From IMG/VR virus record IMGVR_UViG_3300010343_000004: a stretch of 64,000 bases of DNA. One strand, given 5' to 3'. Positions 5,613 to 46,547 of the stretch are shown piece after piece. This DNA comes from a virus. Position numbers and translations under genes: made by a program. Under the pieces are notes generated by a model. That model ran no database searches and was not told the origin of the DNA. It was given only the letters and a program-made list of their open reading frames with translations. Positions within the stretch are counted from its first letter, which is position 1, and each line of letters opens with the position of its first letter.

Positions 5613-5977
5613 GGGGCCCTCGGTGGCTGCGGCGGGTGCGGCGGGTGGGAATAGTGACCGTTCGAGATGCCGAGGCGCGCGAGCTCGCCGCACTCCTCGC
5701 AGAGGCCAACGTAGTAGCCCCTTGCCAGTTTCATCTTGGGCCAAAGGATGCGGTGCATGTACCCGTGCGAGAAAGCGACCTCGCGGAGCCTCCCGCAGTT
5801 GCAGAAGAAGAGTTGGAGCGGGTTTACGGCCCGCGCCCACTCGACGAGCTTGTTCGGACGCCGGTAGACGCGCGGCGGCATGGCTCCCTTCGAAGCGTCG
5901 TTGTTCCACGGCGGGTCACGCCCGCGCGTGAGGCGGTAGACCAGGTCGCCGAGGGTCATGTCTATGGTTTGCATCAA
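5609..5977 (-). CDS. hypothetical protein with Cys4 motif
   Basis: CNCG...CEECG. Confidence 0.6.
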   Translation of the reverse strand: MMQTIDMTLGDLVYRLTRGRDPPWNNDASKGAMPPRVYRRPNKLVEWARAVNPLQLFFCNCGRLREVAFSHGYMHRILWPKMKLARGYYVGLCEECGELARLGISNGHYSHPPHPPQPPRAP

Positions 5978-7269
5978 TACTTGTTCTCCCGCGGGTACGG
6001 TGCGTCCGGGATGGGCTTACGAAGAAACCCACAGAGCTCGTACCAGCCAGCCCCTTTGCTCATGTCCATCACGAGCAAGTCCTTCGGTCGGTCCTTGAAG
6101 TGCTCGAGGACCTCGGCGTTGTGGCGGCGGTAGCGTTCGAGCATGACCTGTCTCTCGAACTTCACGCGCCCGTAGACTTCGCGGTGGATCTTGTGTGTGA
6201 ACGGGTCGTGGTCCCACTGCGAGCGCCACGGATTCTTGTCGCTCCAGTGCGCGCGGACGCTTTCGACCCACTGCTCCTCGTCGCGGATCGTGAGGACGAA
6301 CTTGGAGCCTGGGTACGCCGTGTCGAGCTCCCGGAAGAGGATCGGGATCGGCAGATCGCATAGCGCGTAGTTGCGTTCGAGAGTCCGCGAGCTCCCGCCC
6401 TCCTTCATCTCCTCCCAGATCGCCTTCGCCCAGTGCGCCGACTTCCAGTGCGCGCTGTCGTACCCGAGCTTGATGAGGGCGTGGTTCAGGCTGGTGGTCG
6501 CCGTCTTCTGCATTCCGAGCCCGAAGATCCTCGTGGGTACGGGCAAAAGCTCGATGGGCTGTCGCCCGAAGTTCTTGTAGAAGACTCCGAGACCGAACTT
6601 ACCGGCGTTGGCGATACGGACGTTCTCGCGGCCGGGCAGGACCCAGTCTTCGGCCGCGTTCTCGCCGTCGAGGTGCGGGTAGTCGCGGAAGCGCATCTTG
6701 TCGTTGTGGCTGATCGCGTTGAGAAAACGCGCGTCGATCTCCTGGGCCTCGAACCCGAGTTTTCGCAGGCGTGCGTTGAAGTCCTTGTCGTCCGGCGACC
6801 ACGTGGAGAAGACTTCGTCGTAGCCGCCCGCGGCAAGGAAGGCATGGCTCGTGACGGCAATGCGGCCGGAGATGCCGCGACGCATCTCGCCTCTCTTCAT
6901 GTGCGCCCATAGGAAGGACCCGCCGTCGTAAAGTTGCTCGGCGACGTACTCGTCGAAGTCTTGGCCAGCAAAGTTGTCCGCGTCCAAGTTCACGATGACG
7001 TCGGCGCCCTCCAGCATCGCAAGCCGGTGGGCGACGTTCTTCGCATGGGCCATGCGGAACGGCCCGGGCTCGGTGAACCGGTAAACCGAGAGTCTGCCGC
7101 TCTCGACGTCGGCCATGTGGTTTTTGCGGATGAACTCGTCGAGGTGGTCCGGGCTGTTGTAGTTCACAAGCACGTGCTTGGCCTTCGCGTTGTCGCGGAG
7201 GTTGGCCGGGAGCGTCTCTTCGACGTGCTGTACACGGCCTTTGCAAGTTGTAGAGAAAGCGATCTGCAT
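5974..7269 (-). CDS. GT-A glycosyltransferase fused to a sulfotransferase-family P-loop domain
   Basis: NLDAD DxD motif, GYDE/WSPDDKDF (GT2/GT7-like); C-terminal RIFGLGMQKTATTSL, KFVLTIRDEEQWVES, GWYELCGFL; RBS GAGGAG before MQIAF. Confidence 0.8.
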   Translation of the reverse strand: MQIAFSTTCKGRVQHVEETLPANLRDNAKAKHVLVNYNSPDHLDEFIRKNHMADVESGRLSVYRFTEPGPFRMAHAKNVAHRLAMLEGADVIVNLDADNFAGQDFDEYVAEQLYDGGSFLWAHMKRGEMRRGISGRIAVTSHAFLAAGGYDEVFSTWSPDDKDFNARLRKLGFEAQEIDARFLNAISHNDKMRFRDYPHLDGENAAEDWVLPGRENVRIANAGKFGLGVFYKNFGRQPIELLPVPTRIFGLGMQKTATTSLNHALIKLGYDSAHWKSAHWAKAIWEEMKEGGSSRTLERNYALCDLPIPILFRELDTAYPGSKFVLTIRDEEQWVESVRAHWSDKNPWRSQWDHDPFTHKIHREVYGRVKFERQVMLERYRRHNAEVLEHFKDRPKDLLVMDMSKGAGWYELCGFLRKPIPDAPYPRENKY

Positions 7270-7289
7270 AAGTCTCTCCTCGATCTCCT

Positions 7290-10200
7290 CTAGACGGCGC
7301 ACGCGCCGCCGACGCATGCTGCCTCGCCCGTCAGGTTCGTGCCGTCCGCCGTCTCGCGGAGCTCCGCGTAGTCGAGCGGCACGTAGTGCTGCACGAGGTG
7401 GTTCCACCGCGCCTCGTCGGCTTCCGTCAGCACTTCCTCGTTCGGAGCGAAGGCGTAGTCCTTGTCGCCTGAGCTCGCGATGAGAGAGACGCCAGAGAAG
7501 TGTTCCTGGTTCTGCCAGAGGTACTCGGCCACCGCCTCCCACTCGTGAGGTCTGACGGTCGCGGTGTTCGAGACGTTGTGCGATAGCTTGGGGGAGTGCG
7601 TCTCGCTCGCCGTGCCGGCCGCGACCCAGTTCTCCTGCGTCGAGCACACCATCTCGAGAAACTCGATCGCCGAGAGGTCCTTCTTTACGATCGCGCCGTC
7701 GGGCGCCTGGACGGGGAACTCGATGACCCACTTGCCGTCGGGCTTACGTACGCACATGTGCGGGTTCTTTTCGCGGAAGGCCTGGAAGACCGGCTCGAGT
7801 TCCACGGCGATGACGCGGCGGATGTAGCGCCGCGCGTGGTGCGGATGGTGGCCAGAGGCGACGCACCCGAGCTCGAGGCTCGTTGTCCCGCTCGGTTTCA
7901 CGCACGTCGTGCGGGCGGCCGGACGGATGCCGATGCGGGCGGCGTACTCCGCGTTCCACTCTTTGATCTTGCCGGCGACTTCGCGCTGTATAGTGGCGTT
8001 GCAGGCTACCTGTGGCGCGTCAAGCATGCCGGTCATCCCGACGCCGAGTAGGGCATCGCGCTTCGCGATCTCTTCACTCACCCAGCCGAGGTACGGCATG
8101 TCCGTGTATGCGGCCTGCAGTGTCCCGATGAGGGTCGCGGCTTGTGCGGCCTCGAGGAAGTCCTTGCGTGAGGTGAACTTCGCAGCGTTGATCTCGCAGA
8201 GGTTGCAGAAGGCCCACCCGGTAAGCACGTCGCCGATCGACACGTGGATGCTGCGTGCGGCCATGCGTCTCCGGATGCTGTCGTCGACCGTGAGCCGGGG
8301 GTAGAGGCCGATCTCGCAGCACTGCCCCGTGACGATTCCCTCGAACGTGCCGGTATGGTTGGACGGTTCGGTGAAGCAGTACACGGTGTCTGCCATGGGG
8401 AGCGGCTCGACGCGTAGCACCGTCACGAAGCGCCTCGCATCCCGCTGGGGGGCAAGCTTGGCCCCGGACAAGTCGAGGCGGTGCGTTTCCAGGCCGAGCC
8501 GCACCAACTTGTGTGCGTCGGTCGCGTTGATGAGCAAACGGTTCAGCTCCTGCGTCGGGTACTCAGCCATGCCGCCCTTCCCATCCGGCAGCAGGTTGGC
8601 GCCTTCGTCCTTCGCCTTGCCGATCTTCGCTTGGACGCCGAGCGTCGTCAGCATGAGCCGCACCTCGCGGAGGAAAGGCAGATTCACGCTTGGGAGCTGA
8701 ATGTTGATGCTCTTCGGGTTCTTGACGATGGACCCGTCCCCGTCGAACAAACCCGCCAACCATTCGATCTTGGATCGCGCGGAAGCGTCCAGCGGCACAC
8801 TGAACTTCTCCGGTATCTCCGGGAAAACGACCCTCGTGCGGTCGAGATCCTCGTTCGGCGCACCGACCCGGACGGTCTCGAGGTGTGGGATGAGGGTCTG
8901 CTTCGCGCCGTAGAGGTACGCGACACGCCGACCGGCGTCCTCTTCGGCGCCGTCGGCGCAGAAGAAACCGTGCGTGTAGGCGTGCGGCATATCTGCACCG
9001 CCCTCGACGACAGGCATGTCGTAGCGGAGGATCACGTCGCCCTCTTCGAGGTCACTCGCTTCGACGCGTTCCTCGATGTGGTCTCGGCTCCATCGACCCA
9101 TGGCGATGCACCACTCATGACGCTCCGTGCAATCGAGGGATGTCCCGTCCGAGAGATGCACGCGGACCATAGGCTGATCGCGGCCAGTCACAGACGGCGT
9201 CACGGTCTTCCAGCCGATACCGTTCCACACGACAGTGGGCTTGCCGACCCTTGTCTCGATGGGGACGTATCCCTCGCGAGTGAGGATGCGTGTCCCGGCG
9301 GGCACGCAGGGGTTCGTTCCGTAGTCGCGTCCCGCTGAGAAGAAGAAGCCGGGCTCTCCCCACTGCTTGGTCATCTCGAAGATGCGCGTGAACTGCTTCT
9401 TCTTCGCCTCGCCGCGCATGAGTGCGACAGAGTTATTCGCGTTTGCGAGCCACGGCTCTTCGGCGAACCAGTTGCCCGTCTTGCAGTTCATCATCTCGCT
9501 GTCCTCGAGAGAGAAGAGCGCGATCATGGCACTGCGGCGGACGCCTCCGGATAGGACCGCATCGGCCGCGTGGCACATGATGCGATGGGATTCAATGGGG
9601 CGGAGACGTCGACCTTGAGCTGCGTCGAGTACACGCCTCACCCTTTCGAGCGCAGTCTTCAGCGGCACATGTCCGGGGGCGACGCCTCCCGAGGTCTTGA
9701 GCGGCGTACCCGCAGGGCGGACAAGGTGGTAGGAGACCTCGAGGTATTCGCCCGTCGTGTAGCTTTGGACGAGAGCCTTCAATGTGTCGGCCCATCCTTC
9801 GATACTGTCGCCGACGACGTGATGACGGATTCTCCTCGCATCGATGAAGCCGAGCGGCGGCATCTTCTCGGTGTGGTCAAGATGCACGGAGTAGCCGACG
9901 CCGCTCCCCGAGAGGAGCAGAAACATGGCCTCGCCGAAGACGTTCAGGTGGTCCACCAAACCGAACGTACAGTTGTACATGCGCTGGTGGTTTGTGAGGA
10001 TCGCTGGCCCTGAAAACTGCATGCTCCGCATGCTCGGCAGAACGCGTTTGTCTCTCACGAAGTCGAATGCGCGGCGGATCTCCACCTCGAGGCCCGGGAA
10101 CTTGCCGAGGTGCATGGCTTCTACGCGGGCGACGGTCTCCTCGTACACCTCGCGGCGCCCAAGCTCGTCTCGGTGGCGGGCATACTTGCTCGCGTGGATG

Positions 10201-10592
10201 TATCCGCCGACAGCCTCCGGGTCTGGCCTTTTATCGCGGAGCGCGCGAGCCTCCGTGCGCTTCTGACGGTAAATGATGTACGCCTTCGCAACGTCGTAAG
10301 CCTTTGCGCGCATGAGCGCGACCTCGACGATATCTTGCACCGTCTCGACGTCGACGATCCCGAACGGCAGCGAGCGCAGGACGTCACGCGCAACGAGGTC
10401 GATGCTCTGGTCGTCCTTTTTTTCGTGGCACTCGGTCCACGCGGCCGCGATGGCCGCACGGATCTTGGCAGCGTCGAATTCCTGGACGGTTTCACCGTCG
10501 CGCTTACGGATCTCCCTCTTGCGCTCATCTATCGGCGACGGGGGAATGGATGCGAGCGCGGCGCCCATCGCGTCTGCCAAGGCAGCGCTCAC
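7290..10592 (-). CDS. nrdJ: class II (B12-dependent) ribonucleotide reductase with ATP cone and intein
   Basis: ATP cone IRKRDG...FDAAKIRAAI; VLPSMRSMQF, YNC, GSGVGYS, GGVRRSA, NP|CCEI, TTCVKPSGTTS, C-terminal CVGGAC. Confidence 0.95.
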   Translation of the reverse strand: MSAALADAMGAALASIPPSPIDERKREIRKRDGETVQEFDAAKIRAAIAAAWTECHEKKDDQSIDLVARDVLRSLPFGIVDVETVQDIVEVALMRAKAYDVAKAYIIYRQKRTEARALRDKRPDPEAVGGYIHASKYARHRDELGRREVYEETVARVEAMHLGKFPGLEVEIRRAFDFVRDKRVLPSMRSMQFSGPAILTNHQRMYNCTFGLVDHLNVFGEAMFLLLSGSGVGYSVHLDHTEKMPPLGFIDARRIRHHVVGDSIEGWADTLKALVQSYTTGEYLEVSYHLVRPAGTPLKTSGGVAPGHVPLKTALERVRRVLDAAQGRRLRPIESHRIMCHAADAVLSGGVRRSAMIALFSLEDSEMMNCKTGNWFAEEPWLANANNSVALMRGEAKKKQFTRIFEMTKQWGEPGFFFSAGRDYGTNPCVPAGTRILTREGYVPIETRVGKPTVVWNGIGWKTVTPSVTGRDQPMVRVHLSDGTSLDCTERHEWCIAMGRWSRDHIEERVEASDLEEGDVILRYDMPVVEGGADMPHAYTHGFFCADGAEEDAGRRVAYLYGAKQTLIPHLETVRVGAPNEDLDRTRVVFPEIPEKFSVPLDASARSKIEWLAGLFDGDGSIVKNPKSINIQLPSVNLPFLREVRLMLTTLGVQAKIGKAKDEGANLLPDGKGGMAEYPTQELNRLLINATDAHKLVRLGLETHRLDLSGAKLAPQRDARRFVTVLRVEPLPMADTVYCFTEPSNHTGTFEGIVTGQCCEIGLYPRLTVDDSIRRRMAARSIHVSIGDVLTGWAFCNLCEINAAKFTSRKDFLEAAQAATLIGTLQAAYTDMPYLGWVSEEIAKRDALLGVGMTGMLDAPQVACNATIQREVAGKIKEWNAEYAARIGIRPAARTTCVKPSGTTSLELGCVASGHHPHHARRYIRRVIAVELEPVFQAFREKNPHMCVRKPDGKWVIEFPVQAPDGAIVKKDLSAIEFLEMVCSTQENWVAAGTASETHSPKLSHNVSNTATVRPHEWEAVAEYLWQNQEHFSGVSLIASSGDKDYAFAPNEEVLTEADEARWNHLVQHYVPLDYAELRETADGTNLTGEAACVGGACAV
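8322..9308 (-). mobile_element. intein with LAGLIDADG homing endonuclease (329 aa), inserted at the catalytic NPC of NrdJ
   Basis: Block A CVPAGTRILT; block B CTERHEW; HGFFCADG and LAGLFDGDG; block F/G TVYCFT...GIVTGQ; +1 Cys; removal restores TNPCCEIG. Confidence 0.92.
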
Positions 10593-25263: not shown

Positions 25264-26124
25264 ATGGGCAACGCAGCCAAGAAGACGCTTGCAGACTTCA
25301 AGAAAACTCGGTGCGGCCGGTGCAGTGACCCGCTCATCGCTGGCGGCTGCATGTGCCGCGGGTGCGGCTACTACAACTTCGGCGTCGGCGGCGCGTACAA
25401 CAAACCCCTCATCCGCCTTGGCGACGCGATCAGCGCGGACCTGAAACGAGTAAGGACCGGCCCGTGGGATCCGGTCTTCGGCAACGGGAAGGTCGGCGGC
25501 GACGGCCTCGTCGAGACTTCGGTCGTGCTCATCGGTGCGGTCCCGGGGTGCGGCAAGTCGACGCTGGCTTTGCAGGCCTGCGACCGTGTGATCGAGGACA
25601 CCGGCAAGGAGGCGCTCTTCATCTCGAGCGAGCAGCTCGTCTCGGAGGTCAAGACCTACGCAGATCGCCTTCAGCTCAAGCACACGAAGAAGATCGTGAT
25701 GATCGACACGGTCGGCGGTTACGACGAGCTCGGCAACCTCGAGGACATCGCCAAGCACGTCATGCCGGGGATCATCATCCTCGATTCGCTCCCCGGTCTC
25801 TGCGGCGACAACCACGACGTGGCTGTCGAGATGTGCGAGGTCCTGAAAAAGGAGGTCAGCGCGAAGGTCAAGGCTCCCTCCATCGTCGTCGACCACGTGA
25901 CCAAGGCCCACGAGATGGCGGGCCTGATGGGTCTGCAGCACTCGGTCGATGTGCTTGCAATCATGGACCGCAACGACGATACGCAGGTCCGGTCGATCTA
26001 CACGCGCAAGAACCGCTTCGGCAAAGCCGGTGAGAAGATCTACCTGCAGATGGTGGAGCGCGGACTCATCCTCGCCAACCACAACCCGGACGAAGACGAC
26101 GAGGACGAGGACGAAGACGACTGA
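25264..26124 (+). CDS. radA: RadA/Sms-family ATPase lacking the Lon-like C-terminal domain
   Basis: C4 Zn finger, Walker A PGCGKST, IILDS, HVTK..EMAG...LQHSVD, KNRFG signature; acidic tail. Confidence 0.85.
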   Translation: MGNAAKKTLADFKKTRCGRCSDPLIAGGCMCRGCGYYNFGVGGAYNKPLIRLGDAISADLKRVRTGPWDPVFGNGKVGGDGLVETSVVLIGAVPGCGKSTLALQACDRVIEDTGKEALFISSEQLVSEVKTYADRLQLKHTKKIVMIDTVGGYDELGNLEDIAKHVMPGIIILDSLPGLCGDNHDVAVEMCEVLKKEVSAKVKAPSIVVDHVTKAHEMAGLMGLQHSVDVLAIMDRNDDTQVRSIYTRKNRFGKAGEKIYLQMVERGLILANHNPDEDDEDEDEDD

Positions 26125-26140: not shown

Positions 26141-26815
26141 ATGGAGACGAGCCCGATCGCTGGCGGCACCGAAGGAGCTGCTCTTTCTGAGAGGAACGTG
26201 AAGAACCCTTGCTCGGTCTGCGGAGTCGAGTCGGTCGAGGGGATGCCGAACTTCTGCGCGCAGCACCGGCACGAGTACCGCTACGAGAACCTCGCGAACC
26301 CCGAAGCGAAGCACGTGCGGATCGCAGAGGAGGACGAGGTCGTCCTCGGCAAGGTCGGCAAGAAGTTCGAGCTCGTGCTCGTGATGGATGGCCTCGTCAG
26401 TGGCGAAGAAACCGTTGAGACGTTCTATCCGTACCGCGTTCTCTTGAACGTCCCTGCGCCAGGCTTCATGATCCTCCACGGCATCTACGTGGGGGGCGAG
26501 ATCGAGGGCCTGCAGAACGAGTCGGCGTCGTTCGTCGAGGAGCTCCGCAAAGTCGGCGTCGCCGTCGGCGGCAAGAACATCCTCACCAGGCAAGCAGAAG
26601 ACGCCTACAACTACTTCCTCCACGAGGTGCAGCGCCAAGAGCTCGAGTGGCACCTGCGCGGACGAAGGCGCCACAAGAGGCTCGGGATGCCGGTCATGAA
26701 ACGCGGAGACCACGTCCGCGTGACGGGCGAGATGACAGGGCTCGTGCCGCAGGGCTACGAATTCGGCACGCCGTTTCGGATCTGCGCCTATGTCGAGGGG
26801 ACCGACAGGCTTTGA
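26141..26815 (+). CDS. hypothetical protein
   Basis: AGGAG RBS; CSVC...CAQH. Confidence 0.65.
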   Translation: METSPIAGGTEGAALSERNVKNPCSVCGVESVEGMPNFCAQHRHEYRYENLANPEAKHVRIAEEDEVVLGKVGKKFELVLVMDGLVSGEETVETFYPYRVLLNVPAPGFMILHGIYVGGEIEGLQNESASFVEELRKVGVAVGGKNILTRQAEDAYNYFLHEVQRQELEWHLRGRRRHKRLGMPVMKRGDHVRVTGEMTGLVPQGYEFGTPFRICAYVEGTDRL

Positions 26816-29682: not shown

Positions 29683-30246
29683 ATGGCTACCGGTCTCGTC
29701 GCCTATCATCCGCTCCACCGCTCAGCAGCGCTCGGGCACGCCCACGTGGGCGGTCACCACAACTCGATCACCGAGTTCCTTACCCACAACCCGATCCTCT
29801 CGCGCGTCCGCGCACCCTTCTCGGGTCCCGTGGATGTACGGGCTCGCGCAGTCGAGAGCGGTCACATGCTCCGGCAGAGCGCCGAGACGGTCGTCACCGC
29901 GGGCCTCCTCGGTCTCCTCCATGTGGAGATGCCGAGGGGTGGTCTCGACCAGATGAAGGGAAGGCTCCCCGTCGACGGCGCTGTCGCCGTCGCAGGGTTC
30001 GGTCTCTCGTGGCTTGCCGCAGGCCACGACTCGAACGTCTCCTCGGATCTCCGCAACGTCGGCGCGACGGCCCTCGGCATCCTCACCTTCCGCAAGGCCT
30101 TCGCCTTCGCTGCCGAGAAGAAGCTCCACTCGGGAGGCGCGGTCGGCGGCAGCTTCGGCCCCGCGGCGACCGGCGCCCCTCGCCCCCTCGGCGCGCACGG
30201 CGACATTCACGCGGACCCGATCGTTCGGGCGGCGCGCGCGCTGTGA
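29683..30246 (+). CDS. membrane protein, candidate virion protein
   Basis: Three hydrophobic segments; first gene after the AT-rich gap. Confidence 0.7.
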   Translation: MATGLVAYHPLHRSAALGHAHVGGHHNSITEFLTHNPILSRVRAPFSGPVDVRARAVESGHMLRQSAETVVTAGLLGLLHVEMPRGGLDQMKGRLPVDGAVAVAGFGLSWLAAGHDSNVSSDLRNVGATALGILTFRKAFAFAAEKKLHSGGAVGGSFGPAATGAPRPLGAHGDIHADPIVRAARAL

Positions 30247-30637: not shown

Positions 30638-31366
30638 ATGCGTCCTAACTCGAGCAACCTCAGCCAGCGCGACCCCGGCCTGGCTGCTTTCATGGGTGCC
30701 ATCGGCGCCCCGGGAAGCGACTTCGGGGCACCCGTCCAGTTCTCGTGGGAACCGAACTTCCAGCCGGAGTTCTGGGAATCGCAGAGCTGGCAGCCGCAGT
30801 ACGAGTTCGGTGTGGAGGCCCCTGCGCCTCCGATGGCGCATCCCATGATGCACCACCGACCGGCGCCCCCGCATCCGGCGCAGCACCCGGACTTCCACCA
30901 GATGCTCGCCCTGTGGCATCGTCACCACGCGATGAGGGCCCACACGGGTCGTCGCGAGATGCTGCTCGAGCCGAACAAGGGCTCGGCGGTGAAGATCGAG
31001 CGCTACTCGTTCGGCATCAACACGACCATCACGCTCGGCGTGGTCGGCGCGCCGTTGACGCTGACCGGGCAGCCGGACGTCAACATCCGGCCCCAGCGCG
31101 TGATCATGAACGCTCCGTCCCCCGGTTTCGCCATCATCGACGAGATCAAGGTCGCGAACGTCTCGGTCACCGTCGGTGTTCAGGAGGACGCGTTCAACTA
31201 CAGCGCGCTCGCCCAGAACTCCCACCTCGACATGCCCACCCTCTCGCCCGCGAACCGCGCAACGGTTCTCGGTGAGATGACGGGCTTTGTCCCCCCGGGC
31301 TTCACGGGCGGCACGTCGTACCTCTTCACGACGTCCTTCCAGGGCCCCGCGTCCGTCATCGCGTAA
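30638..31366 (+). CDS. candidate major capsid protein (His/Pro-rich N-terminus plus ~120-aa beta-rich domain)
   Basis: AAGGAG RBS; alternating beta pattern IRPQRVIM, IIDEIKVANV; two paralogues downstream. Confidence 0.55.
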   Translation: MRPNSSNLSQRDPGLAAFMGAIGAPGSDFGAPVQFSWEPNFQPEFWESQSWQPQYEFGVEAPAPPMAHPMMHHRPAPPHPAQHPDFHQMLALWHRHHAMRAHTGRREMLLEPNKGSAVKIERYSFGINTTITLGVVGAPLTLTGQPDVNIRPQRVIMNAPSPGFAIIDEIKVANVSVTVGVQEDAFNYSALAQNSHLDMPTLSPANRATVLGEMTGFVPPGFTGGTSYLFTTSFQGPASVIA

Positions 31367-31396
31367 GGACGAGCGCAAGCGAGTCCTTTCTCTTCT
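31364..31396 (+). terminator. hairpin plus pyrimidine tract
   Basis: AGGAC-GA-GC-GCAA-GC-GA-GTCCT then TTCTCTTCT; near-identical copy at 41104. Confidence 0.6.
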
Positions 31397-31509
31397 TCAC
31401 CGACCCGTCGCAGGGAGAGGTTGCAAGAGACAAGCTCGCGAGCGCCCCACGCTGACGGGCAGAGGGAAAGACTCCAGGACAAGAGGGAACGCGCGAGGAC
31501 GAGGACTGC

Positions 31510-32016
31510 ATGCGGCTCGATTACGACATGCCCCACGTCTTCCACCCGCAGTCGCATGCGGAGGACAACGCGCGAGCTCTCGATGCTTCCCTGGAATACC
31601 TGATCTCGCTCGACCAGATATTCCTCGACCGGTACCCCCAGACGCCTCCCCTCTACCGTCTGGGGGTACGCTACGGTCGAACGAAGGTCTGGGACACGAT
31701 CCCCGCCCTGATACTCCGCGGTTACGGCGATTGCAAAACGCTGACGGCCGCACGCATTGCGGAGCTCCGCAGGCAAGGGTTCGACGCGCGGCCGGTCCAT
31801 CGCTGGATCATGCCGCAGGGACCGGACGGTCCGACCGACTTCCACATCCTCGTCCTCACGAACGCTCGCGGGCCGACGATCAACGCCGAGGGGTGGGAAG
31901 ACCCGAGCAAGGTGCTCGGGATGGAGGCGGACGAGAATACGTACATGCGCGACATGCCTGGAGGGCCGCCAGGCGGAGAAGGGTTGCTGACGAGGGTGTT
32001 CGGGTGGATGCGATGA
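31510..32016 (+). CDS. transglutaminase-like cysteine protease
   Basis: GYGDCKT (Cys), FHIL (His), WEDPS (Asp) triad in order. Confidence 0.75.
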   Translation: MRLDYDMPHVFHPQSHAEDNARALDASLEYLISLDQIFLDRYPQTPPLYRLGVRYGRTKVWDTIPALILRGYGDCKTLTAARIAELRRQGFDARPVHRWIMPQGPDGPTDFHILVLTNARGPTINAEGWEDPSKVLGMEADENTYMRDMPGGPPGGEGLLTRVFGWMR

Positions 32017-32558
32017 ACGAGAGACGTGTAGACCAGACCAGGAGAGGGCTCATCGCTCTTCTCCTCGCGTGGCCTGCGCTTCTCTTTGCGCGCATCACCG
32101 GTGTGCTCGAAGGCCTCGGGCGGCGCCTGCCGCGCCTCGCCTCGAAGCCTCTCCGCAAAGAGGACGAGCCGACGCTCGTCCGAATCGAGCGTTACTCGTA
32201 CACGGTCAGTAGTCCAGCGAAGCTCGGCGAGCCGAAAGCGGTCGCCATGCAAGGCGCGCCCGACATCTCGATCGCAGCAGACCGCATCGTCGCGAACACG
32301 CCCTGCCCAGGCTTTCTCATCCTCGAGGAGCTCTCGATTGACGGGCGCGACGTGCTCATCGGCGAGGCGACAGACGCCTTCGTCTTCAGCTCGCTCGCGA
32401 TGGGCGGACAGATGCTGCTGCCGCCTATGGGTCCCAAGTCACGCGTCGTGGTGAGAGGCCACTACACGGGCTTCGTTCCGCCGGGCTACGTGGCAGGCGC
32501 CGCGTACTTGCTCTGCCTCACCTTCATGGGGCGCGCTGCCTTCCTCGAGGTAGCCTGA
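32013..32558 (+). CDS. divergent paralogue of the capsid-like beta domain with hydrophobic N-terminus
   Basis: IERYSY...PDISI...PGF...DAF...TGFVPPGY...YL...F.G.A; TRRGLI plus hydrophobic stretch. Confidence 0.65.
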   Translation: MNERRVDQTRRGLIALLLAWPALLFARITGVLEGLGRRLPRLASKPLRKEDEPTLVRIERYSYTVSSPAKLGEPKAVAMQGAPDISIAADRIVANTPCPGFLILEELSIDGRDVLIGEATDAFVFSSLAMGGQMLLPPMGPKSRVVVRGHYTGFVPPGYVAGAAYLLCLTFMGRAAFLEVA

Positions 32559-32559
32559 C

Positions 32560-33294
32560 ATGTCCCTCTTCTCGCGTTTGTGCGGCGGCAAAGAAACGAG
32601 CGAATCCGCGCCGGCGCATCGCAGGCCTCTCGGCGAGGAGTACTGGGCCGAGTCGCCAGTGCGTCCGCAGGCGGGGGTTCTCCGCGAGCTCCTCTCGGCC
32701 TGGGTCGACCGTGAAGTATCGAGGAGGCTTACGAACCTGCGCGAGATGCTCCTCGAACCGAACAGGGGCTCATCAATAAAGATCGAGCGTTACTCGTTCG
32801 GCATCCATACGACGATCACGCTCGGTGTGGCCAAGGCGCCGCTCACGTTGACCGGTCAGCCCGACGTCAAGATCCGGCCGCAAAGGGTCATCATGAACGC
32901 ACCCTCGCCCGGGTTCGCGATCATCGACGAGATCAAGGTCGCGAACGTGAGCGTCACCGCCGGCGTGCAGGAAGACGCCTTCAACTATTCGTCTCTCGCG
33001 CACGGCGTGCACCTCGACATGCCGACGCTCTCGCCCGCAAACCGCGCGACCGTCCTCGGCGAGATGACGGGCCGCGTGCCTGAGGGTTTCGGGTTCAAAA
33101 ACCCCACGGGACCAGGATGGGTGGACGAGGGAGCGGACGAAGTCAGTCCCCCGGCGACGCCGGAGGCGACGCCGGAAGGTGGAGAAGTCGGTGCTTTCCT
33201 CGAGGCGCAGAAACCGAAGGTCAATAAGAGGAACCTCGGCGAGAGCTACCTCTTCACGTGCGCGTTCCAGGGACCCGCGACGGTCATCGCCTGA
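32560..33294 (+). CDS. close paralogue of 30638-31366 with an inserted loop of about 50 aa
   Basis: Most of the domain is identical by eye, e.g. IRPQRVIMNAPSPGFAIIDEIKVANVSVT. Confidence 0.75.
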   Translation: MSLFSRLCGGKETSESAPAHRRPLGEEYWAESPVRPQAGVLRELLSAWVDREVSRRLTNLREMLLEPNRGSSIKIERYSFGIHTTITLGVAKAPLTLTGQPDVKIRPQRVIMNAPSPGFAIIDEIKVANVSVTAGVQEDAFNYSSLAHGVHLDMPTLSPANRATVLGEMTGRVPEGFGFKNPTGPGWVDEGADEVSPPATPEATPEGGEVGAFLEAQKPKVNKRNLGESYLFTCAFQGPATVIA

Positions 33295-33317
33295 CGGAGA
33301 AGAAGGAGAACGAAACC

Positions 33318-34790
33318 ATGGGACTCGGTGACTGGTTCAAGAAGTGGTTCGGCGGAGCAGAGCACTTCGCCGTGGAGCCCTGGCACCACATGGAGGACCG
33401 CTTCCGGGGTCTCCGCCACACGCATCACCAAGCGAGCCCGTTCTTTCACGGCGCGGGGCAGAGCCCGTTCGGTGTGATCGAGGCTCCTGGCATGCCCATG
33501 GCCCATCCCTTGATGGGTCACCCTGGCGTGATGCCTGTTCACCCTGGTGTGATGCCTGGTCACCCTGGCGCAATGCCCGGTCATCCAGGCGCAATGCCTG
33601 GTCACCCTGGCTTCCCCGGCCACCCGACGCAGACACACCCGACTCCAGGCAGGTTCGCGCCGAGGATGATGCCGCATCCGGGTCTCGGCACGCATCCAGG
33701 CTTCGCGCCGAGGATGATGCCGCATCCCGGCTTCGGTCCGCGCCCCGGCTTCGCCCCGACCATGATGCCGCATCCAGGTATGCCGCACGCACCCGGATCG
33801 CCTTTCGGTCCGCGCCCCGGCATGCCTGGCGCACCGTTCGGTCCGGGTCCAGGTGCACCCTTCGCACGTCCGCTCCCCCCGCTCCCCCCGGGCTGGGCGC
33901 ACGGAGCTCCTCCGCCTCCGAACTGGAGGCCCGGCGCGCCGTTCCCGCAAGACTGGCAACCACCTCCGCAGAGATTCGATGCGCCGCCTGAGCCGTGGCG
34001 CGGAGACTGGGATCGCCACGAACATGAGCATCGCGACCGCGACCGCGACCACGACCGCGATCGAGACCGGGACGATGACCGGGGAGGCTACGGCCCACCC
34101 CAGGGGTACGGCCCGCCCCAGGGGTACGGCCCGCCTCCTCCACCGTACGGCGGAGGCTTCGGCCCACCGGCGGGAGCAGGCGACACAGGCGAGGCAGGCT
34201 TCCAGATGCTCCAGGGGCTGCCTTCGACGGCGGAAAAGGACGCGGGCCTCGCGCCCGGCCCCGCCGACCCGAACGCGCAGGATGCGGGCGATACGGTCAT
34301 CCCGGACACGGGGTCGACCGACTCGAACGGGCAGGCCGTCGTGCCGCCCGACACGAGCAACGACTCGTCGGACATGGCCGGCGAGCTTCTCTACGGCGAG
34401 GCGGGCGACGTGCTCGGCAAGTCGTACGAGGGAGAGGTGGATCTGCCGATGCCAATGGAACAAGAGGGACTCGACATGGCGACCGCGATGATGGGCTTCG
34501 AGGGGCTCGTTCCTCTCAGCACCTTCGGCGGACCGCCGCACGCGCACTACCACGAGGGCATGGACGAGTTCCCGACGACGCTCGACTCGTTCGCCGCCAT
34601 CAGCGACTCGCCGGCCTCGCCCATCACGAGCTTCTCCGGCGCCGACGTCGAGGACCTCGACTGGGGCGCCGCACATGTGATGGCGACGGAGTGGGATGAC
34701 GTCACGCCCCCGACGCCCGACTTCGCCGGAGACGACTTCTCCGGCGAGATGTACCCGAACCTCTACAGGGAGACGACCATCAAGCTGTAA
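33318..34790 (+). CDS. low-complexity P/G/H/M-rich protein with acidic C-terminus
   Basis: AGGAG RBS; repeats PGVMPGH, PGFAPRMMPH, GYGPPQ, DRDRDH. Confidence 0.7.
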   Translation: MGLGDWFKKWFGGAEHFAVEPWHHMEDRFRGLRHTHHQASPFFHGAGQSPFGVIEAPGMPMAHPLMGHPGVMPVHPGVMPGHPGAMPGHPGAMPGHPGFPGHPTQTHPTPGRFAPRMMPHPGLGTHPGFAPRMMPHPGFGPRPGFAPTMMPHPGMPHAPGSPFGPRPGMPGAPFGPGPGAPFARPLPPLPPGWAHGAPPPPNWRPGAPFPQDWQPPPQRFDAPPEPWRGDWDRHEHEHRDRDRDHDRDRDRDDDRGGYGPPQGYGPPQGYGPPPPPYGGGFGPPAGAGDTGEAGFQMLQGLPSTAEKDAGLAPGPADPNAQDAGDTVIPDTGSTDSNGQAVVPPDTSNDSSDMAGELLYGEAGDVLGKSYEGEVDLPMPMEQEGLDMATAMMGFEGLVPLSTFGGPPHAHYHEGMDEFPTTLDSFAAISDSPASPITSFSGADVEDLDWGAAHVMATEWDDVTPPTPDFAGDDFSGEMYPNLYRETTIKL

Positions 34791-36178: not shown

Positions 36179-36784
36179 ATGCCCGTGCAACCCAAAACGA
36201 TGGAAGAAGGCGCGCGGTCTCTCGTCGAGCGGTCGCGCGCCGGCGACCAGAACGCGATGGCCCTCATCGCGCAGATCCGGCAGCGCGCCCTCTTTGGGCG
36301 CGACCGGATCCCGGCTGGCGAACGGATGATCGCGATGACGAGCTACAAGCTCATCGGCGACTACCTCGACAACCACCCGGTGGATAGCATCGGCGTGGAG
36401 AACGCCACGCCGCCTCCTTCCCCGCGCATCCTCTCGTACGTCCATCCCGACGTACCCGAGTGGCTGCCGATCGCCCTGCCCGAGTGCCTGCCGAAGAAGA
36501 AAGGCTTCATGGCGGTCGTCGTTCGGCTCGCGAACGGGCGTGAGCTCACTTCGGACGACCTTGAGCGAGTGTCCCAGGTGATGGGACCAGAGAACGCCGG
36601 ACACGTCGTCGCGGGCGCGTTCAAGCAGGCTGCCCCGCCGGGCCTCGACCACCTCGCGAGAACGGCGTTTGTCATCGGCGTCTGTCTCGGCACCGCGATG
36701 ACGCTGCAAGCCGTCCGCGAGGGGCGTGCACCGGTCTGGATGCTAAGCCCCGAGGCTTCGTGGGAGCTCGGAGAAGGGGAATAG
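36179..36784 (+). CDS. hypothetical protein
   Basis: GGAGG RBS. Confidence 0.7.
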   Translation: MPVQPKTMEEGARSLVERSRAGDQNAMALIAQIRQRALFGRDRIPAGERMIAMTSYKLIGDYLDNHPVDSIGVENATPPPSPRILSYVHPDVPEWLPIALPECLPKKKGFMAVVVRLANGRELTSDDLERVSQVMGPENAGHVVAGAFKQAAPPGLDHLARTAFVIGVCLGTAMTLQAVREGRAPVWMLSPEASWELGEGE

Positions 36785-36791
36785 GTGCGCC

Positions 36792-37967
36792 TTGCTCCGC
36801 ACTCTGAGCTTGATGGGCTTGCTCGTCCTCTTGGTGAGCTGCATCGGATGCACATACAATACAACGAATCAAGAGATCATCGCTGTCGAAGGGGCGGATG
36901 GGGGTAGCGACACAGAACCCTCTTTCACCTGTGAGACGGTCCTCGAGCTGCCCGACGGTGGCGAAACAGTTCTCGCGACGACGACGTTGAGCGGGAACGG
37001 TGAAGATGATGGAGATGGTGGAATGCGCGATTCGGCAAATAACCCTACGGAGCAAGTCAAGGGCGGCTGGTCTCAGTCCGGTCCGCTCCAGCAGTTCTTC
37101 CCCAACCAGCGCGTCAAGTGTCAGGCGAATCTGCCGTACTCGCAGTATTACACCGTCCAATTCAACGTTACGCCACAAGACTTGCCTAACGTCACCGACG
37201 GGTCGGGGCCTCCTCCCCTCATCGTCCCGTACGTTTTCGCGTACCGCGCCGTCGCCACGATACGTTGGTCGGTCGAGGGCAACTTCGTCTCGCGGATGGT
37301 CGACGTGGGCAACGGCAACGCGATCTCAGGTCCCGGCCAGGGTTTCGCGATCAGCGTCCAGGATCTTTCCGACGCAATCACGGCCGCCGCGCTAGCTGGA
37401 GGTGTCATCGTCACGAGCGGCTCGCCGGACATCGTCTTCGCAGACGAGCAGGTATTCTCTGCAGGACAACTACTCTTCTTCTCGTCCGATTCAAACGTCT
37501 ACACCGTCGAAGGAGAGACCTTGGGTTTCGTCGACGACAAGCACTGGACGCTCACGACGCCGTTTCTGGGGCCTACCGGCGTGGCCGAAGCTTTCTTGTT
37601 TCTCATGTACACAGTGACGATCCAGGTGACGGAAGGCACGCGCCCGAACCCGGAAGTTCCGCCCACGCTCTTCGCAGCCTCGGTGTTGCTCCCCACATTC
37701 GGAATCGGTGACTCCATCACTGTTCCGGTGCCTCCTGGCTCTGGGGCGAACTCGGTCGAGGTGGTCGCGTTTTCTGCGAATCCTCTCACAAAGCCCAATG
37801 TGATGGTGACTCAGAACAACGGTGGAGGCGCCATCATCAAGGAGTACGACCCTGACATCAACATCGGGTTTGTCTCGCTCATGGCGAACGCGAGCAGCGT
37901 GACCGTTACGAATCAGGATCCGGCCAACGATGTCCGGATCACAATCACTTTCGGGATCGACGGGTAG
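36792..37967 (+). CDS. beta-rich virion-like protein with lipoprotein-like N-terminal extension (internal ATG at 37023)
   Basis: LLVLLVSCIGC lipobox-like; from 37023 it aligns with 38238-39173. Confidence 0.7.
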   Translation: MLRTLSLMGLLVLLVSCIGCTYNTTNQEIIAVEGADGGSDTEPSFTCETVLELPDGGETVLATTTLSGNGEDDGDGGMRDSANNPTEQVKGGWSQSGPLQQFFPNQRVKCQANLPYSQYYTVQFNVTPQDLPNVTDGSGPPPLIVPYVFAYRAVATIRWSVEGNFVSRMVDVGNGNAISGPGQGFAISVQDLSDAITAAALAGGVIVTSGSPDIVFADEQVFSAGQLLFFSSDSNVYTVEGETLGFVDDKHWTLTTPFLGPTGVAEAFLFLMYTVTIQVTEGTRPNPEVPPTLFAASVLLPTFGIGDSITVPVPPGSGANSVEVVAFSANPLTKPNVMVTQNNGGGAIIKEYDPDINIGFVSLMANASSVTVTNQDPANDVRITITFGIDG

Positions 37968-37971
37968 TGCC

Positions 37972-38241
37972 ATGAAGCGCGTGGTGCACAAACTCGCATC
38001 GCGCCGGAGGCGTAACCTCTGGAGCCGCAAGATCCAGACGCGCTGGCATCCGCACGCTGGCCTCTTCAAGCTGCCCGCGGACAAGCTCGCGAAGAGGCTT
38101 CTCCACGAGTCGGTCAATCCCGGGCAGGCCGTCAAGCGTCTCAGCTTCTTCATCAACCGAGCGGGCAAGAATCTCCATCCCGACGAGCTCGCACGACTCC
38201 ACCACGCGATGCGCATCCTCGAGTCAAAGAGGGGACCATGA
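37972..38241 (+). CDS. DUF3175-like basic protein with leader
   Basis: LSFFINRAGKNL motif; starts MKRVVHKL. Confidence 0.6.
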   Translation: MKRVVHKLASRRRRNLWSRKIQTRWHPHAGLFKLPADKLAKRLLHESVNPGQAVKRLSFFINRAGKNLHPDELARLHHAMRILESKRGP

Positions 38242-39173
38242 GGCAAGCACCGAACGATCCCACGCGCCCCGTGAGAGACGGCTGGTCGCAGTCCGGGACC
38301 CTCACGACGGGTGTGCCGGGCCAGGTGACCATGCAGGTCGACTTCCCAGTGTCCGAAGTGCACACCATCATGTTTGGGATCATCAACCCGGGCCTCGGTA
38401 TCCCGATCAACCCCATCGCGGTCGTGAGGTGGTCGGTAGAGGGAAACTTCGTCAGCCGGCGTTTCAACGTCGGAAACGGCGTTGCGCTCTCCGCACCCTC
38501 GCAGGCGGTCCGCATCATCATCGACGACGAGACGCCCTTTTTATTCATCAATGTGATTGGCACGGTCGCCGTCACCGAAGGCTCTATGGCCGTTGTCTTT
38601 AGCTCGGCCCAATTCTTCGGCAAGGGAATTCCTCTGGCCTTCAGCTCGCAATCAAACATCATTTACGTCCTGAGCTCGGACATCGACGGTGTCGGGAACG
38701 CGACCCTCTTGACCCCCTACACTGGGCCCACCGATCCAGCGGCGAGCGCCATCATCGAGGCGGCCTACACGGTCGGGGTGCAGATCGCTCCCGGCGTCCG
38801 GGCAAACGACGAGATCCCGGTCACACTGAACGCCGTCATCCCTGAGCAGCCTGGGTTCATACCGGCTCCGGCTTTGAACTTCGTGACGCTGCAGCCCAAG
38901 GGAAGCGTTGGGGCGAACGTCACGATACCCATCCCCATGGATGCCGGGGTGCGTTCGGTCGAGATCACCGCCGATGCCACCTTCCCTCCGGGACCCCAGC
39001 TCAGCGTGATTCAGAGCGTCGCTGGTTTTGTCGTGAAGATATACAGCATCATCACCCCGACGTCCGGGTTCATCGCGATTGCCGCCAACGCGACGCAGAT
39101 CGAGATCCTCAACGAGGACCCGACGCCAGGGATCACAGTCGCGGTGACCATCACCTGGGGCATCGACGGGTAG
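38238..39173 (+). CDS. beta-rich virion-like protein (spike/penton candidate)
   Basis: GWSQSG, RWSVEGNFVSR, ends ITWGIDG like its paralogue. Confidence 0.7.
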   Translation: MRQAPNDPTRPVRDGWSQSGTLTTGVPGQVTMQVDFPVSEVHTIMFGIINPGLGIPINPIAVVRWSVEGNFVSRRFNVGNGVALSAPSQAVRIIIDDETPFLFINVIGTVAVTEGSMAVVFSSAQFFGKGIPLAFSSQSNIIYVLSSDIDGVGNATLLTPYTGPTDPAASAIIEAAYTVGVQIAPGVRANDEIPVTLNAVIPEQPGFIPAPALNFVTLQPKGSVGANVTIPIPMDAGVRSVEITADATFPPGPQLSVIQSVAGFVVKIYSIITPTSGFIAIAANATQIEILNEDPTPGITVAVTITWGIDG

Positions 39174-45542: not shown

Positions 45543-46547
45543 ATGGCGCATAAAGTTCTGCTCGGCGACTGGTTGGCTCACGCAGTCTCCGACCCCGACA
45601 AGGAGGGCGGCTGCAACGCGTTCGTGATGCACCACACCATCGCGGGCGGCAAGAAGGGCGACTTCGTCCACAAGATGGCCCGCGGCTCGAGCGAGTGGGA
45701 CCTGAAAAAGGTCGAAGAGGTGCTCGAGGCGAAGGCCGCCATGTTCGTGCAAGAGAAGCCTGGCCGACAGGTCTTCCGCGTTTACCCTTTCTACGGCGGT
45801 CGCGGGGAAGCCGAGGGGTACTTCGAGTTCAGCAAGGAGCGCCAAGAGGAGGGCGTGGGCTCGCTCACCGAGGAGCCGGACATCCGCGGGCAGACCAGCC
45901 AGCAGATGCGCCACAACGAGGCGCTTGGCGGGCTGTACGTGAGCGGCATCAACCAGCTCATGGGCCACATGCTGGAGCACAACCGTCAACTCGCGCAGGA
46001 GGCCTCGGATCTCCGCCGCGACAACTCGCAGAACTTCGAGACCATGAAGGGCATGGTCCTGCAGATGGAGAGCCACGCGCACGAGATGAAGATGCGCGAG
46101 ATGGAGTTCGAGCGGACGAGTGTCTTTTTCCGCAAGGCCTCCGAGCTTGCGGCGCCGCTCCTCAATACGCTCACCGGCCGTGAGATCGTCCCGCAGAGCT
46201 TCGCAGACTCGCAACTGCTCGAGGCGATCGTCGTGCACATGGCCGCGCAAGAGGACGGAACGGGCAGCGGCGATGCGCTCTACAAGATGATGGAGACCTT
46301 CCCGCAGCACATCCAAGTCTCGATCATGGCCCGCGCGTCCGAGATCATGAAGAAGAAGCGCCTCGAGAGAGAGGAGATCGCGCGGATGAACCCCTTCCGC
46401 GACCCTGCCGCCGACGCCGCCGGCGAGGTGGCTGGCAAAGTCTTCGAGCAACAGAATGGCAGCACTCCCGGCGCCCCCGGCGCCCCCCTTGGCGACGTCT
46501 GGGCGAGCCTTGCGCACGGCGTGAACGGGTCTGGCGCAGCAGTCTGA
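45543..46547 (+). CDS. coiled-coil hypothetical protein
   Basis: Central heptad-rich helix. Confidence 0.7.
   Translation: MAHKVLLGDWLAHAVSDPDKEGGCNAFVMHHTIAGGKKGDFVHKMARGSSEWDLKKVEEVLEAKAAMFVQEKPGRQVFRVYPFYGGRGEAEGYFEFSKERQEEGVGSLTEEPDIRGQTSQQMRHNEALGGLYVSGINQLMGHMLEHNRQLAQEASDLRRDNSQNFETMKGMVLQMESHAHEMKMREMEFERTSVFFRKASELAAPLLNTLTGREIVPQSFADSQLLEAIVVHMAAQEDGTGSGDALYKMMETFPQHIQVSIMARASEIMKKKRLEREEIARMNPFRDPAADAAGEVAGKVFEQQNGSTPGAPGAPLGDVWASLAHGVNGSGAAV

Follow-up and report, generated by a model that had tools for sequence, protein, structure and literature searches.

Which protein forms the virion shell is the question raised by an uncultured soil virus, record IMGVR_UViG_3300010343_000004 of IMG/VR, from which a stretch of 64,000 nucleotides (hereafter the window) was analysed. 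The window covers 64 of the 81 kb of its contig (81,199 bp), and at most ~20 kb was read for each relative. At positions 30638-33294, the original prediction, made from the letters alone, had recognised a triplet of ~120-aa paralogues around a transglutaminase-like protease and proposed a capsid of two or three single-jelly-roll subunits, after the example of P23-77 (VP16/VP17) and SH1 (VP4/VP7), whose capsids are built from two single jelly rolls, one of them with an extra turret. The analysis described below leads us to put at roughly one half the probability that the jelly-roll family is the major capsid protein (MCP) of unrecognised, widespread non-tailed bacterial viruses that encode their own protein-primed DNA polymerase (pPolB).

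The jelly-roll paralogues of the window

The proposed kinship of the paralogues was recovered, albeit with four members rather than three and with a shared unit of ~135 aa plus a preceding helix rather than ~120 aa. Paralogue A (30638..31366, + strand, 242 aa) consists of an N-terminal peptide and a disordered acidic arm (residues 1-85), a basic/His-rich helix (86-110) and the jelly roll (120-240). Paralogue B (32013..32558, + strand, 181 aa) starts with a single transmembrane helix, flanked by Arg, followed by a divergent jelly roll with 33% identity to A and 51 invariant columns, in agreement with its earlier description as a divergent copy with a hydrophobic N-terminus. Paralogue C (32560..33294, + strand, 244 aa) has a short, non-acidic N-terminus. 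The acidic/Pro-rich loop of ~50 aa that had been noted before its last strand was confirmed as an insert of 47 residues in the core. The fourth paralogue, D (26141..26815, + strand, 224 aa), is a strongly divergent jelly roll with inserts and an N-terminal CxxC...CxxH motif, and was assigned to the family by hhalign (probability 97%, E 9.4e-11, 134 columns). Its gene lies directly 3' of that of a RadA-like ATPase, and no homologue of D besides D itself was found in a set of 5.8 billion proteins. A, C and D carry no signal peptide.

A and C are 69% identical over the whole alignment, and the near-identity of their domains is evident from a 111-residue core in which the proteins agree at 89% and the DNA at 81% of positions, with 42 of the 111 third codon positions differing. 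The divergence of the DNA at third positions, set against the conservation of the protein, indicates that the duplication is old and that both copies were kept by selection; a recent copy or gene conversion is ruled out by the same 42 differences. The residues that do not vary across the family (Pro, Gly, Asn, Asp, Tyr and Arg) are located in loops and core, and they include no evident binding or catalytic set.

Predicted fold of the subunit

Paralogue A was folded with AlphaFold2 (AF2) from a 150-sequence alignment. The model has a mean predicted local distance difference test score (pLDDT) of 82.8, with values >95 over residues 120-240, whereas residues 1-85 are disordered and residues 86-110 form a helix. 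Residues 120-240 appear as an eight-stranded beta sandwich with the strands in the jelly-roll B-to-I order, and the fold on which the original prediction depended is thus borne out by the model. The profile of the family has no sequence relative in the PDB, the sole match being at chance level (E 0.52), and matched nothing in Pfam or PHROGs. Structural searches with the A model were similarly sparse: Foldseek gave no match in the PDB at E 1e-3 or better, BFVD returned weak matches only, to unnamed proteins, the best match among the AlphaFold DB clusters was a DUF5666 protein (1e-5, TM 0.36), and the ESM Atlas returned the family alone.

The top structural matches of the model are all jelly rolls, with PHM in first place. 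PHM and PNGase F, two double jelly rolls of cellular origin, have been compared with the double-jelly-roll (DJR) capsid proteins and form clusters separate from them (PMC8812541). Upright capsid proteins are found among the matches, as had been anticipated, with scores of 7.1 for HHIV-2 VP7 and EhV MCP, 6.8 for SPV1, 6.3 for PR772 P3, 6.2 for P23-77 VP17, 6.0 for HCIV-1 and PBCV-1, and 5.7 for SH1. However, they are interspersed with unrelated jelly rolls, and the scores, taken alone, are no proof of kinship with capsid proteins.

The remaining matches include fucosidase, CBM32 and BcsB domains, and jelly rolls of this size are common as carbohydrate-binding modules. The proteins could accordingly be non-structural, i.e. 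beta sandwiches that bind carbohydrate or protein in the course of infection; a transglutaminase-like enzyme directed at the host envelope or wall might use them as substrates. Many peptidoglycan-binding and lytic proteins are encoded nearby, and the papain-fold enzymes include cell-wall amidases. Conversely, such a role sits poorly with the lack of signal peptides on A, C and D, with invariant residues that form no evident binding or catalytic set and with the oligomerisation strongly predicted by modelling (see below), and it would leave genomes of ~25 kb without any capsid candidate. We give it only a small chance.

Predicted assembly of A and C

The multimer modelling by which the capsid proposal was to be examined came out in favour of assembly. 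Three copies of A (residues 100-242) and three of C (residues 57-244) were modelled together in three runs, alongside controls. The 3+3 model passes with 0.67 (0.67, 0.67 and 0.72 in the individual runs) as compared to 0.00 for the best control. Of 80 solved complexes 58 attain the pass mark, as do 2 of 110 mismatched pairs; this calibration is only rough for the 3+3 model because the latter used its own alignments and six chains. At least 86% of the contacts are common to the runs, and the partner pLDDT is at least 69. As the PDB holds no sequence relative, the pass is not the recall of a homologous complex.

The predicted contacts run head to tail, the B, I, D and G strands and the helix of one subunit packing against the E and F strands, the long post-F loop and the N-terminal linker of its neighbour. 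Each subunit makes contact through two different faces, and the faces used by the individual copies would fit a closed six-membered ring with the order A-C-C-A-C-A, an arrangement that corresponds to barrels set about the axis of a capsomer.

The family and its conserved gene module

For the jelly-roll domain, clustering at 90% gives 385 homologues and clustering at 50% identity gives 516 clusters, all of them metagenomic, from soils, sediments and groundwater. No relative was found in IMG/VR by pattern scans with either the jelly-roll or the enzyme alignment, no member by tblastn of 50,697 phage records, and literature searches gave no description of the group. In the species genomes of GTDB the family occurs solely on four short contigs of metagenome-assembled genomes (MAGs) from four different phyla, which is no host evidence. 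The hosts are probably bacteria, judging from peptidoglycan-binding lysins and lipoboxes; Myxococcota or Acidobacteriota can be named only as weak guesses, based on the MAG bin labels and the G+C content. The names of four contigs (L036, L037, L049 and L075) carry the element "01um", which may mean a 0.1-micron filter fraction and, as far as names go, hint at small free particles.

Eighty metagenome loci were fetched, many of them on contigs of 24-39 kb such as Ga0210377_10001049 and OFSE01000060.1, and the gene order was derived from clustering of the open reading frames (ORFs) in 39 of them. The resulting module runs from pPolB through a small conserved protein, a RadA-like ATPase, a polytopic membrane protein, the jelly roll and an enzyme with a C-H-D triad to two membrane/helical proteins, a two-domain beta protein, peptidoglycan-binding and lytic proteins, a ~290-aa helical protein, an exonuclease-like protein and a Gly/Ala-rich protein. 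The best conserved products are pPolB, the enzyme and the jelly roll (median identity 50%, 48% and 47%, respectively), as compared to 27-43% for the other module proteins. The same structural module is seen on contigs of 24-39 kb, 81 kb and 193 kb; genome size within the group would vary about eight-fold, provided that the large contigs are not chimeric.

On most of the related contigs (24-39 kb), a single jelly-roll gene is seen when 10 kb on either side is considered. Extra copies are confined to the lineage of the window, a relative on a 193,332-bp contig (L001) and sporadic loci (L022, L051). This finding speaks against the proposed two- or three-subunit design of the P23-77 type as the ground state of the family. 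From the gene counts, the use of several subunits is a lineage-specific elaboration that came late. In L001 the order is A, enzyme, B, a 335-aa gene and a C without the insert; the 335-aa gene was considered as a further family member and rejected, as it shows no significant kinship (hhalign probability 0.6%). A 39-kb relative has a single jelly-roll gene that is of the C type and includes the insert (P0014). The loop previously likened to a turret is consequently present where C is the only copy, but absent from the C-type gene of L001. The existence of a single C-type gene with the insert leads us to read A and C as alternative forms of one shell subunit, and not as a small and large pair of the P23-77 kind.

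The degree of conservation also bears on whether the jelly rolls might instead be minor parts of the virion, such as penton base, vertex, cement or receptor-binding knobs, with the real shell protein to be sought among the conserved products that lack an assigned fold. The small single jelly rolls of PRD1-type viruses form pentons, and the head-to-tail contacts of the model fit a pentamer as well as a hexamer. In addition, the family of 45543-46547 (~290 aa, present in 23 loci) has no assignable fold, with no lead from Pfam, the PDB or the Atlas. Still, the jelly roll is conserved like the polymerase, and variability is usually greatest in receptor-binding parts; the candidates without an assigned fold look helical, coiled-coil or membrane-embedded upon inspection of their sequences; and the two-domain beta protein already fits a vertex or spike role. 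A minor role is in our judgement unlikely, albeit with a chance large enough to be kept in view.

The transglutaminase-like enzyme

The enzyme located between A and B (31510..32016, + strand, 168 aa) is a transglutaminase-like (papain-fold) Cys enzyme, and its triad, seen already in the original prediction, comprises C75, H112 and D131. These residues are invariant in a 26-sequence alignment and 94-98% conserved across 84 homologues. The Pfam family Transglut_core (PF01841) was matched by 18 of the 26 family members at E values up to 0.1 (best 1.1e-5), the window enzyme itself scoring 16.9 bits, under the gathering cut-off of 23 bits. No sequence match was found in the PDB. The enzyme gene, B and C are tightly coupled, in that the start of B overlaps the stop of the enzyme gene and C begins 2 bases past the end of B. 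A is set apart by a 143-base gap. A short hairpin and a U-rich run are located directly 3' of A, before this gap (31364-31400); the hairpin folds no better than shuffled sequence (z -1.16).

A-type proteins share an N-terminal peptide, L-A-x-R-D-P-A-x-A-A, followed by repeats of D-[FYW]-G-[ADS]-[DE] (30638-30892 in the window, and aligned homologues), with ~5 motifs per arm as compared to 1.07 expected from shuffles; the same figures apply to [FYW]G dipeptides in these arms. Trimming of these acidic arms would be the simplest reading of the enzyme's role, with cross-linking as the alternative. Virus-encoded papain-fold cysteine proteases that mature capsids are found in adenovirus (adenain) and African swine fever virus (pS273R). 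The likeness lies in a Cys-His-Asp/Glu enzyme encoded among structural genes, with candidate substrates that here contain short Gly-containing motifs in disordered arms. However, the catalytic order is C-H-D, as in transglutaminase-like enzymes (PF01841), versus H-E/D-C in the known proteases, and cleavage is here only putative, cross-linking being equally possible.

Neighbouring genes

The window has a G+C content of ~65%, with genes in leftward orientation up to ~24 kb and in rightward orientation from ~25 kb on. The polymerase matches PF03175 at E 1.3e-14 in the window and at 1.5e-10 in a relative (L022), and the self-encoded pPolB is thus present in the window as well as in related loci. 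The window protein shares 25% identity with that of the nearest cultured phage, and a terminal-protein gene is likely to lie beside it. The RadA/KaiC-like RecA-family ATPase (25264..26124, + strand, 286 aa) is the only Walker-A protein that was found in the window or in the three related loci where this motif was sought. Its matches are RadA (PDB 5lkm, E 2.8e-14), KaiC and DnaB_C, together with weak matches to DnaB-like PHROGs. A conserved hydrophobic protein (29683..30246, + strand, 187 aa) with about three membrane helices by inspection belongs to a family whose gene immediately precedes that of the jelly roll in 37 of the 39 loci. Starting within the 3' end of C, a low-complexity protein of ~500 aa (33258-34790; P/G/H/M-rich, with an RD/HE run and an acidic tail) is called as 490 aa on related contigs.

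Two paralogous two-domain beta-sandwich proteins are encoded at 36792..39173 (+ strand), the first of 391 aa with a lipoprotein-type signal and the second of 311 aa, with an 89-aa ORF between them (37972-38241). The family ends in a C-terminal G-I-D-G. An AF2 model (pLDDT 79.9) was matched separately for each domain, to carbohydrate-binding modules and STIV A223; a DJR capsid protein was also considered and rejected, as no DJR MCP is found in the top 50 structural matches. The proteins are candidate vertex or spike proteins.

Alternatively, the virus could be tailed, with an HK97 capsid, a portal and a terminase that escaped detection through strong divergence or are encoded beyond the stretch that was read; the jelly rolls would then serve as decoration or cement. 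As stated above, 64 of the 81 kb and at most ~20 kb per relative were read. One PHROG match, to "tail length tape measure" (E 3.1e-9, 1 of the 35 ORFs of the relatives L018 and L068), is the only tail-like signal; our guess is that this ORF corresponds to the Gly/Ala-rich family of 62618-end in the window. The ESM Atlas also tags neighbouring clusters as "Uroviricota", an automatic label. On the other side, the HK97 capsid, portal and terminase families, as well as DJR capsid families, matched none of the 30 proteins searched among the larger ones of the window, nor the 35 ORFs of L018 and L068, and the window's structural-module proteins are without a PHROG match. Furthermore, the module order is kept in contigs of only 24-26 kb, of which ~20 kb each was read. 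A tailed phage is thus very unlikely.

Two further products encoded on the opposite strand are of a different nature. The large subunit of a ribonucleotide reductase with an ATP cone (7290-10592, -) is split by a LAGLIDADG domain that is probably an intein. In a 585-aa protein (5974-7731, -), a glycosyltransferase-like part is joined to a clear sulfotransferase domain (PF17784, E 2.3e-37), an unusual viral cargo.

Weighing the capsid assignment

Several points weigh against a capsid role. The jelly-roll proteins are known here from genes and models alone, not from particles, and the 39 loci were retrieved via the jelly-roll gene, whose universality among them is consequently a matter of construction. 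The closure of the ring and the upright orientation of the subunits were derived from contact lists, without coordinates. The FtsK/HerA-type packaging ATPase of known upright jelly-roll capsids was not detected, as no FtsK, A32 or HerA family was matched. The families of 45543-46547, 36179-36784 and 62618-end, which lack assigned folds, could hide the real shell protein. Finally, the lipoprotein signals in the two-domain beta family fit an outer envelope better than an inner membrane of the PRD1 type.

The last point is consistent with an enveloped or pleomorphic virion, in which a lipid envelope with lipoprotein spikes would be lined by jelly-roll rings, as a matrix or nucleoprotein layer. 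An L-x-G-C lipobox is found in many of the two-domain beta proteins, including 36792-37967, B has a membrane anchor and the module contains many membrane proteins. The structural match SPV1, moreover, has an unusual enveloped architecture. A packaging ATPase of the usual kind was not detected here, and SPV1 lacks one as well (PMC8812541). However, about half of the two-domain beta family, including the second window copy, is without the lipobox, and the predicted sheet-to-sheet ring contacts would be typical of capsomers. An envelope-associated layer is in our view decidedly unlikely.

Comparison with known viruses

If the family does form the shell, its closest working analogue is the single jelly-roll shell of SPV1 (Portogloboviridae) rather than that of P23-77. 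The genome of SPV1 is circular, of ~20 kb, and is not known to encode a pPolB. Likenesses are the single MCP-type gene, which is the ground state here, and the FtsK/HerA packaging ATPase that is absent from SPV1 (PMC8812541) and was not detected here. In contrast, SPV1 has an archaeal host, whereas the present group appears to be bacterial, replicates with pPolB and has a transglutaminase-like enzyme adjoining the jelly-roll gene; there is also no sequence similarity between SPV1 and the jelly-roll family.

The Helvetiavirae (P23-77 VP16/VP17, SH1 VP4/VP7, HHIV-2 VP4/VP7) resemble the lineage of the window in its duplicated MCP-like genes, one of which has an extra loop on the expected outer side, and in a gene module rich in membrane proteins. 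Nevertheless, the ATPase and the gene number exclude membership in this kingdom: most relatives here have one gene versus two, and the ATPase is RadA/KaiC-like. Moreover, the cores of A and C are near-identical, as opposed to a small and a large MCP. A self-encoded pPolB is not known from the Helvetiavirae.

With PRD1 and the Tectiviridae the group shares probable bacterial hosts, a pPolB with a likely terminal-protein gene beside it, and a late region with many small membrane proteins and wall-lytic enzymes. A small jelly roll is also present in PRD1, as the penton protein P31. The present group differs in that neither a double-jelly-roll MCP nor a P9-type ATPase was detected, and in sizes of 24-39 kb, up to at least 81 kb, versus ~15 kb.

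A model of the shell and its implications

In combination, these results suggest the following model. The subunit would be a single jelly roll with upright strands, packed head to tail through its B-I-D-G sheet against the E-F side of the next subunit, which is predicted to yield ring capsomers, most simply hexamers. The pre-barrel helix and the chain ends would be located at the base and face a lipid layer, such a layer being suggested by the many membrane proteins of the module. From jelly-roll topology, the insert loop of C would point outward. In the ground state, one gene per genome would give a homomeric shell, and the large-genome lineage of the window would have duplicated this gene to four. 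A and C would be interchangeable ring subunits with differing arms and surface loops, whereas B, the membrane-anchored copy, and D, the copy adjacent to the ATPase, have roles at which we can only guess. The C-H-D enzyme would act on the jelly-roll proteins, most likely by trimming the A-type D-F-G-D/E arm at maturation, alternatively by cross-linking subunits.

More tentatively, and with more doubt than confidence on our part, the group may represent a new high-rank lineage of bacterial viruses, characterised by rings of one upright single jelly roll, pPolB, a transglutaminase-like maturation enzyme of its own, no conventional packaging ATPase, and an MCP that was duplicated up to four copies as genomes grew to at least 81 kb. 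If this were true, the SPV1-like "pre-duplication" state that has been proposed for jelly-roll capsids would have its bacterial counterpart in this lineage, and the genomes of at least 81 kb would be several times larger than those of any known non-tailed prokaryotic virus. According to a published scenario, the first upright jelly-roll shells were homo-hexamers of a single jelly roll, and the gene was duplicated afterwards (PMC8812541); the present family seems to include both the single-gene and the duplicated state. For prokaryotic viruses with double-jelly-roll capsids, genomes of <20 kb are given (PMC8812541). The 81-kb and 193-kb contigs that carry the module, if genuine, would widen the size range of such viruses considerably. 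Since detection pipelines seek known capsid genes, bacterial viruses without tails are badly under-sampled. If the present family is indeed a capsid gene, it would provide a handle for finding a large and overlooked group of viruses.

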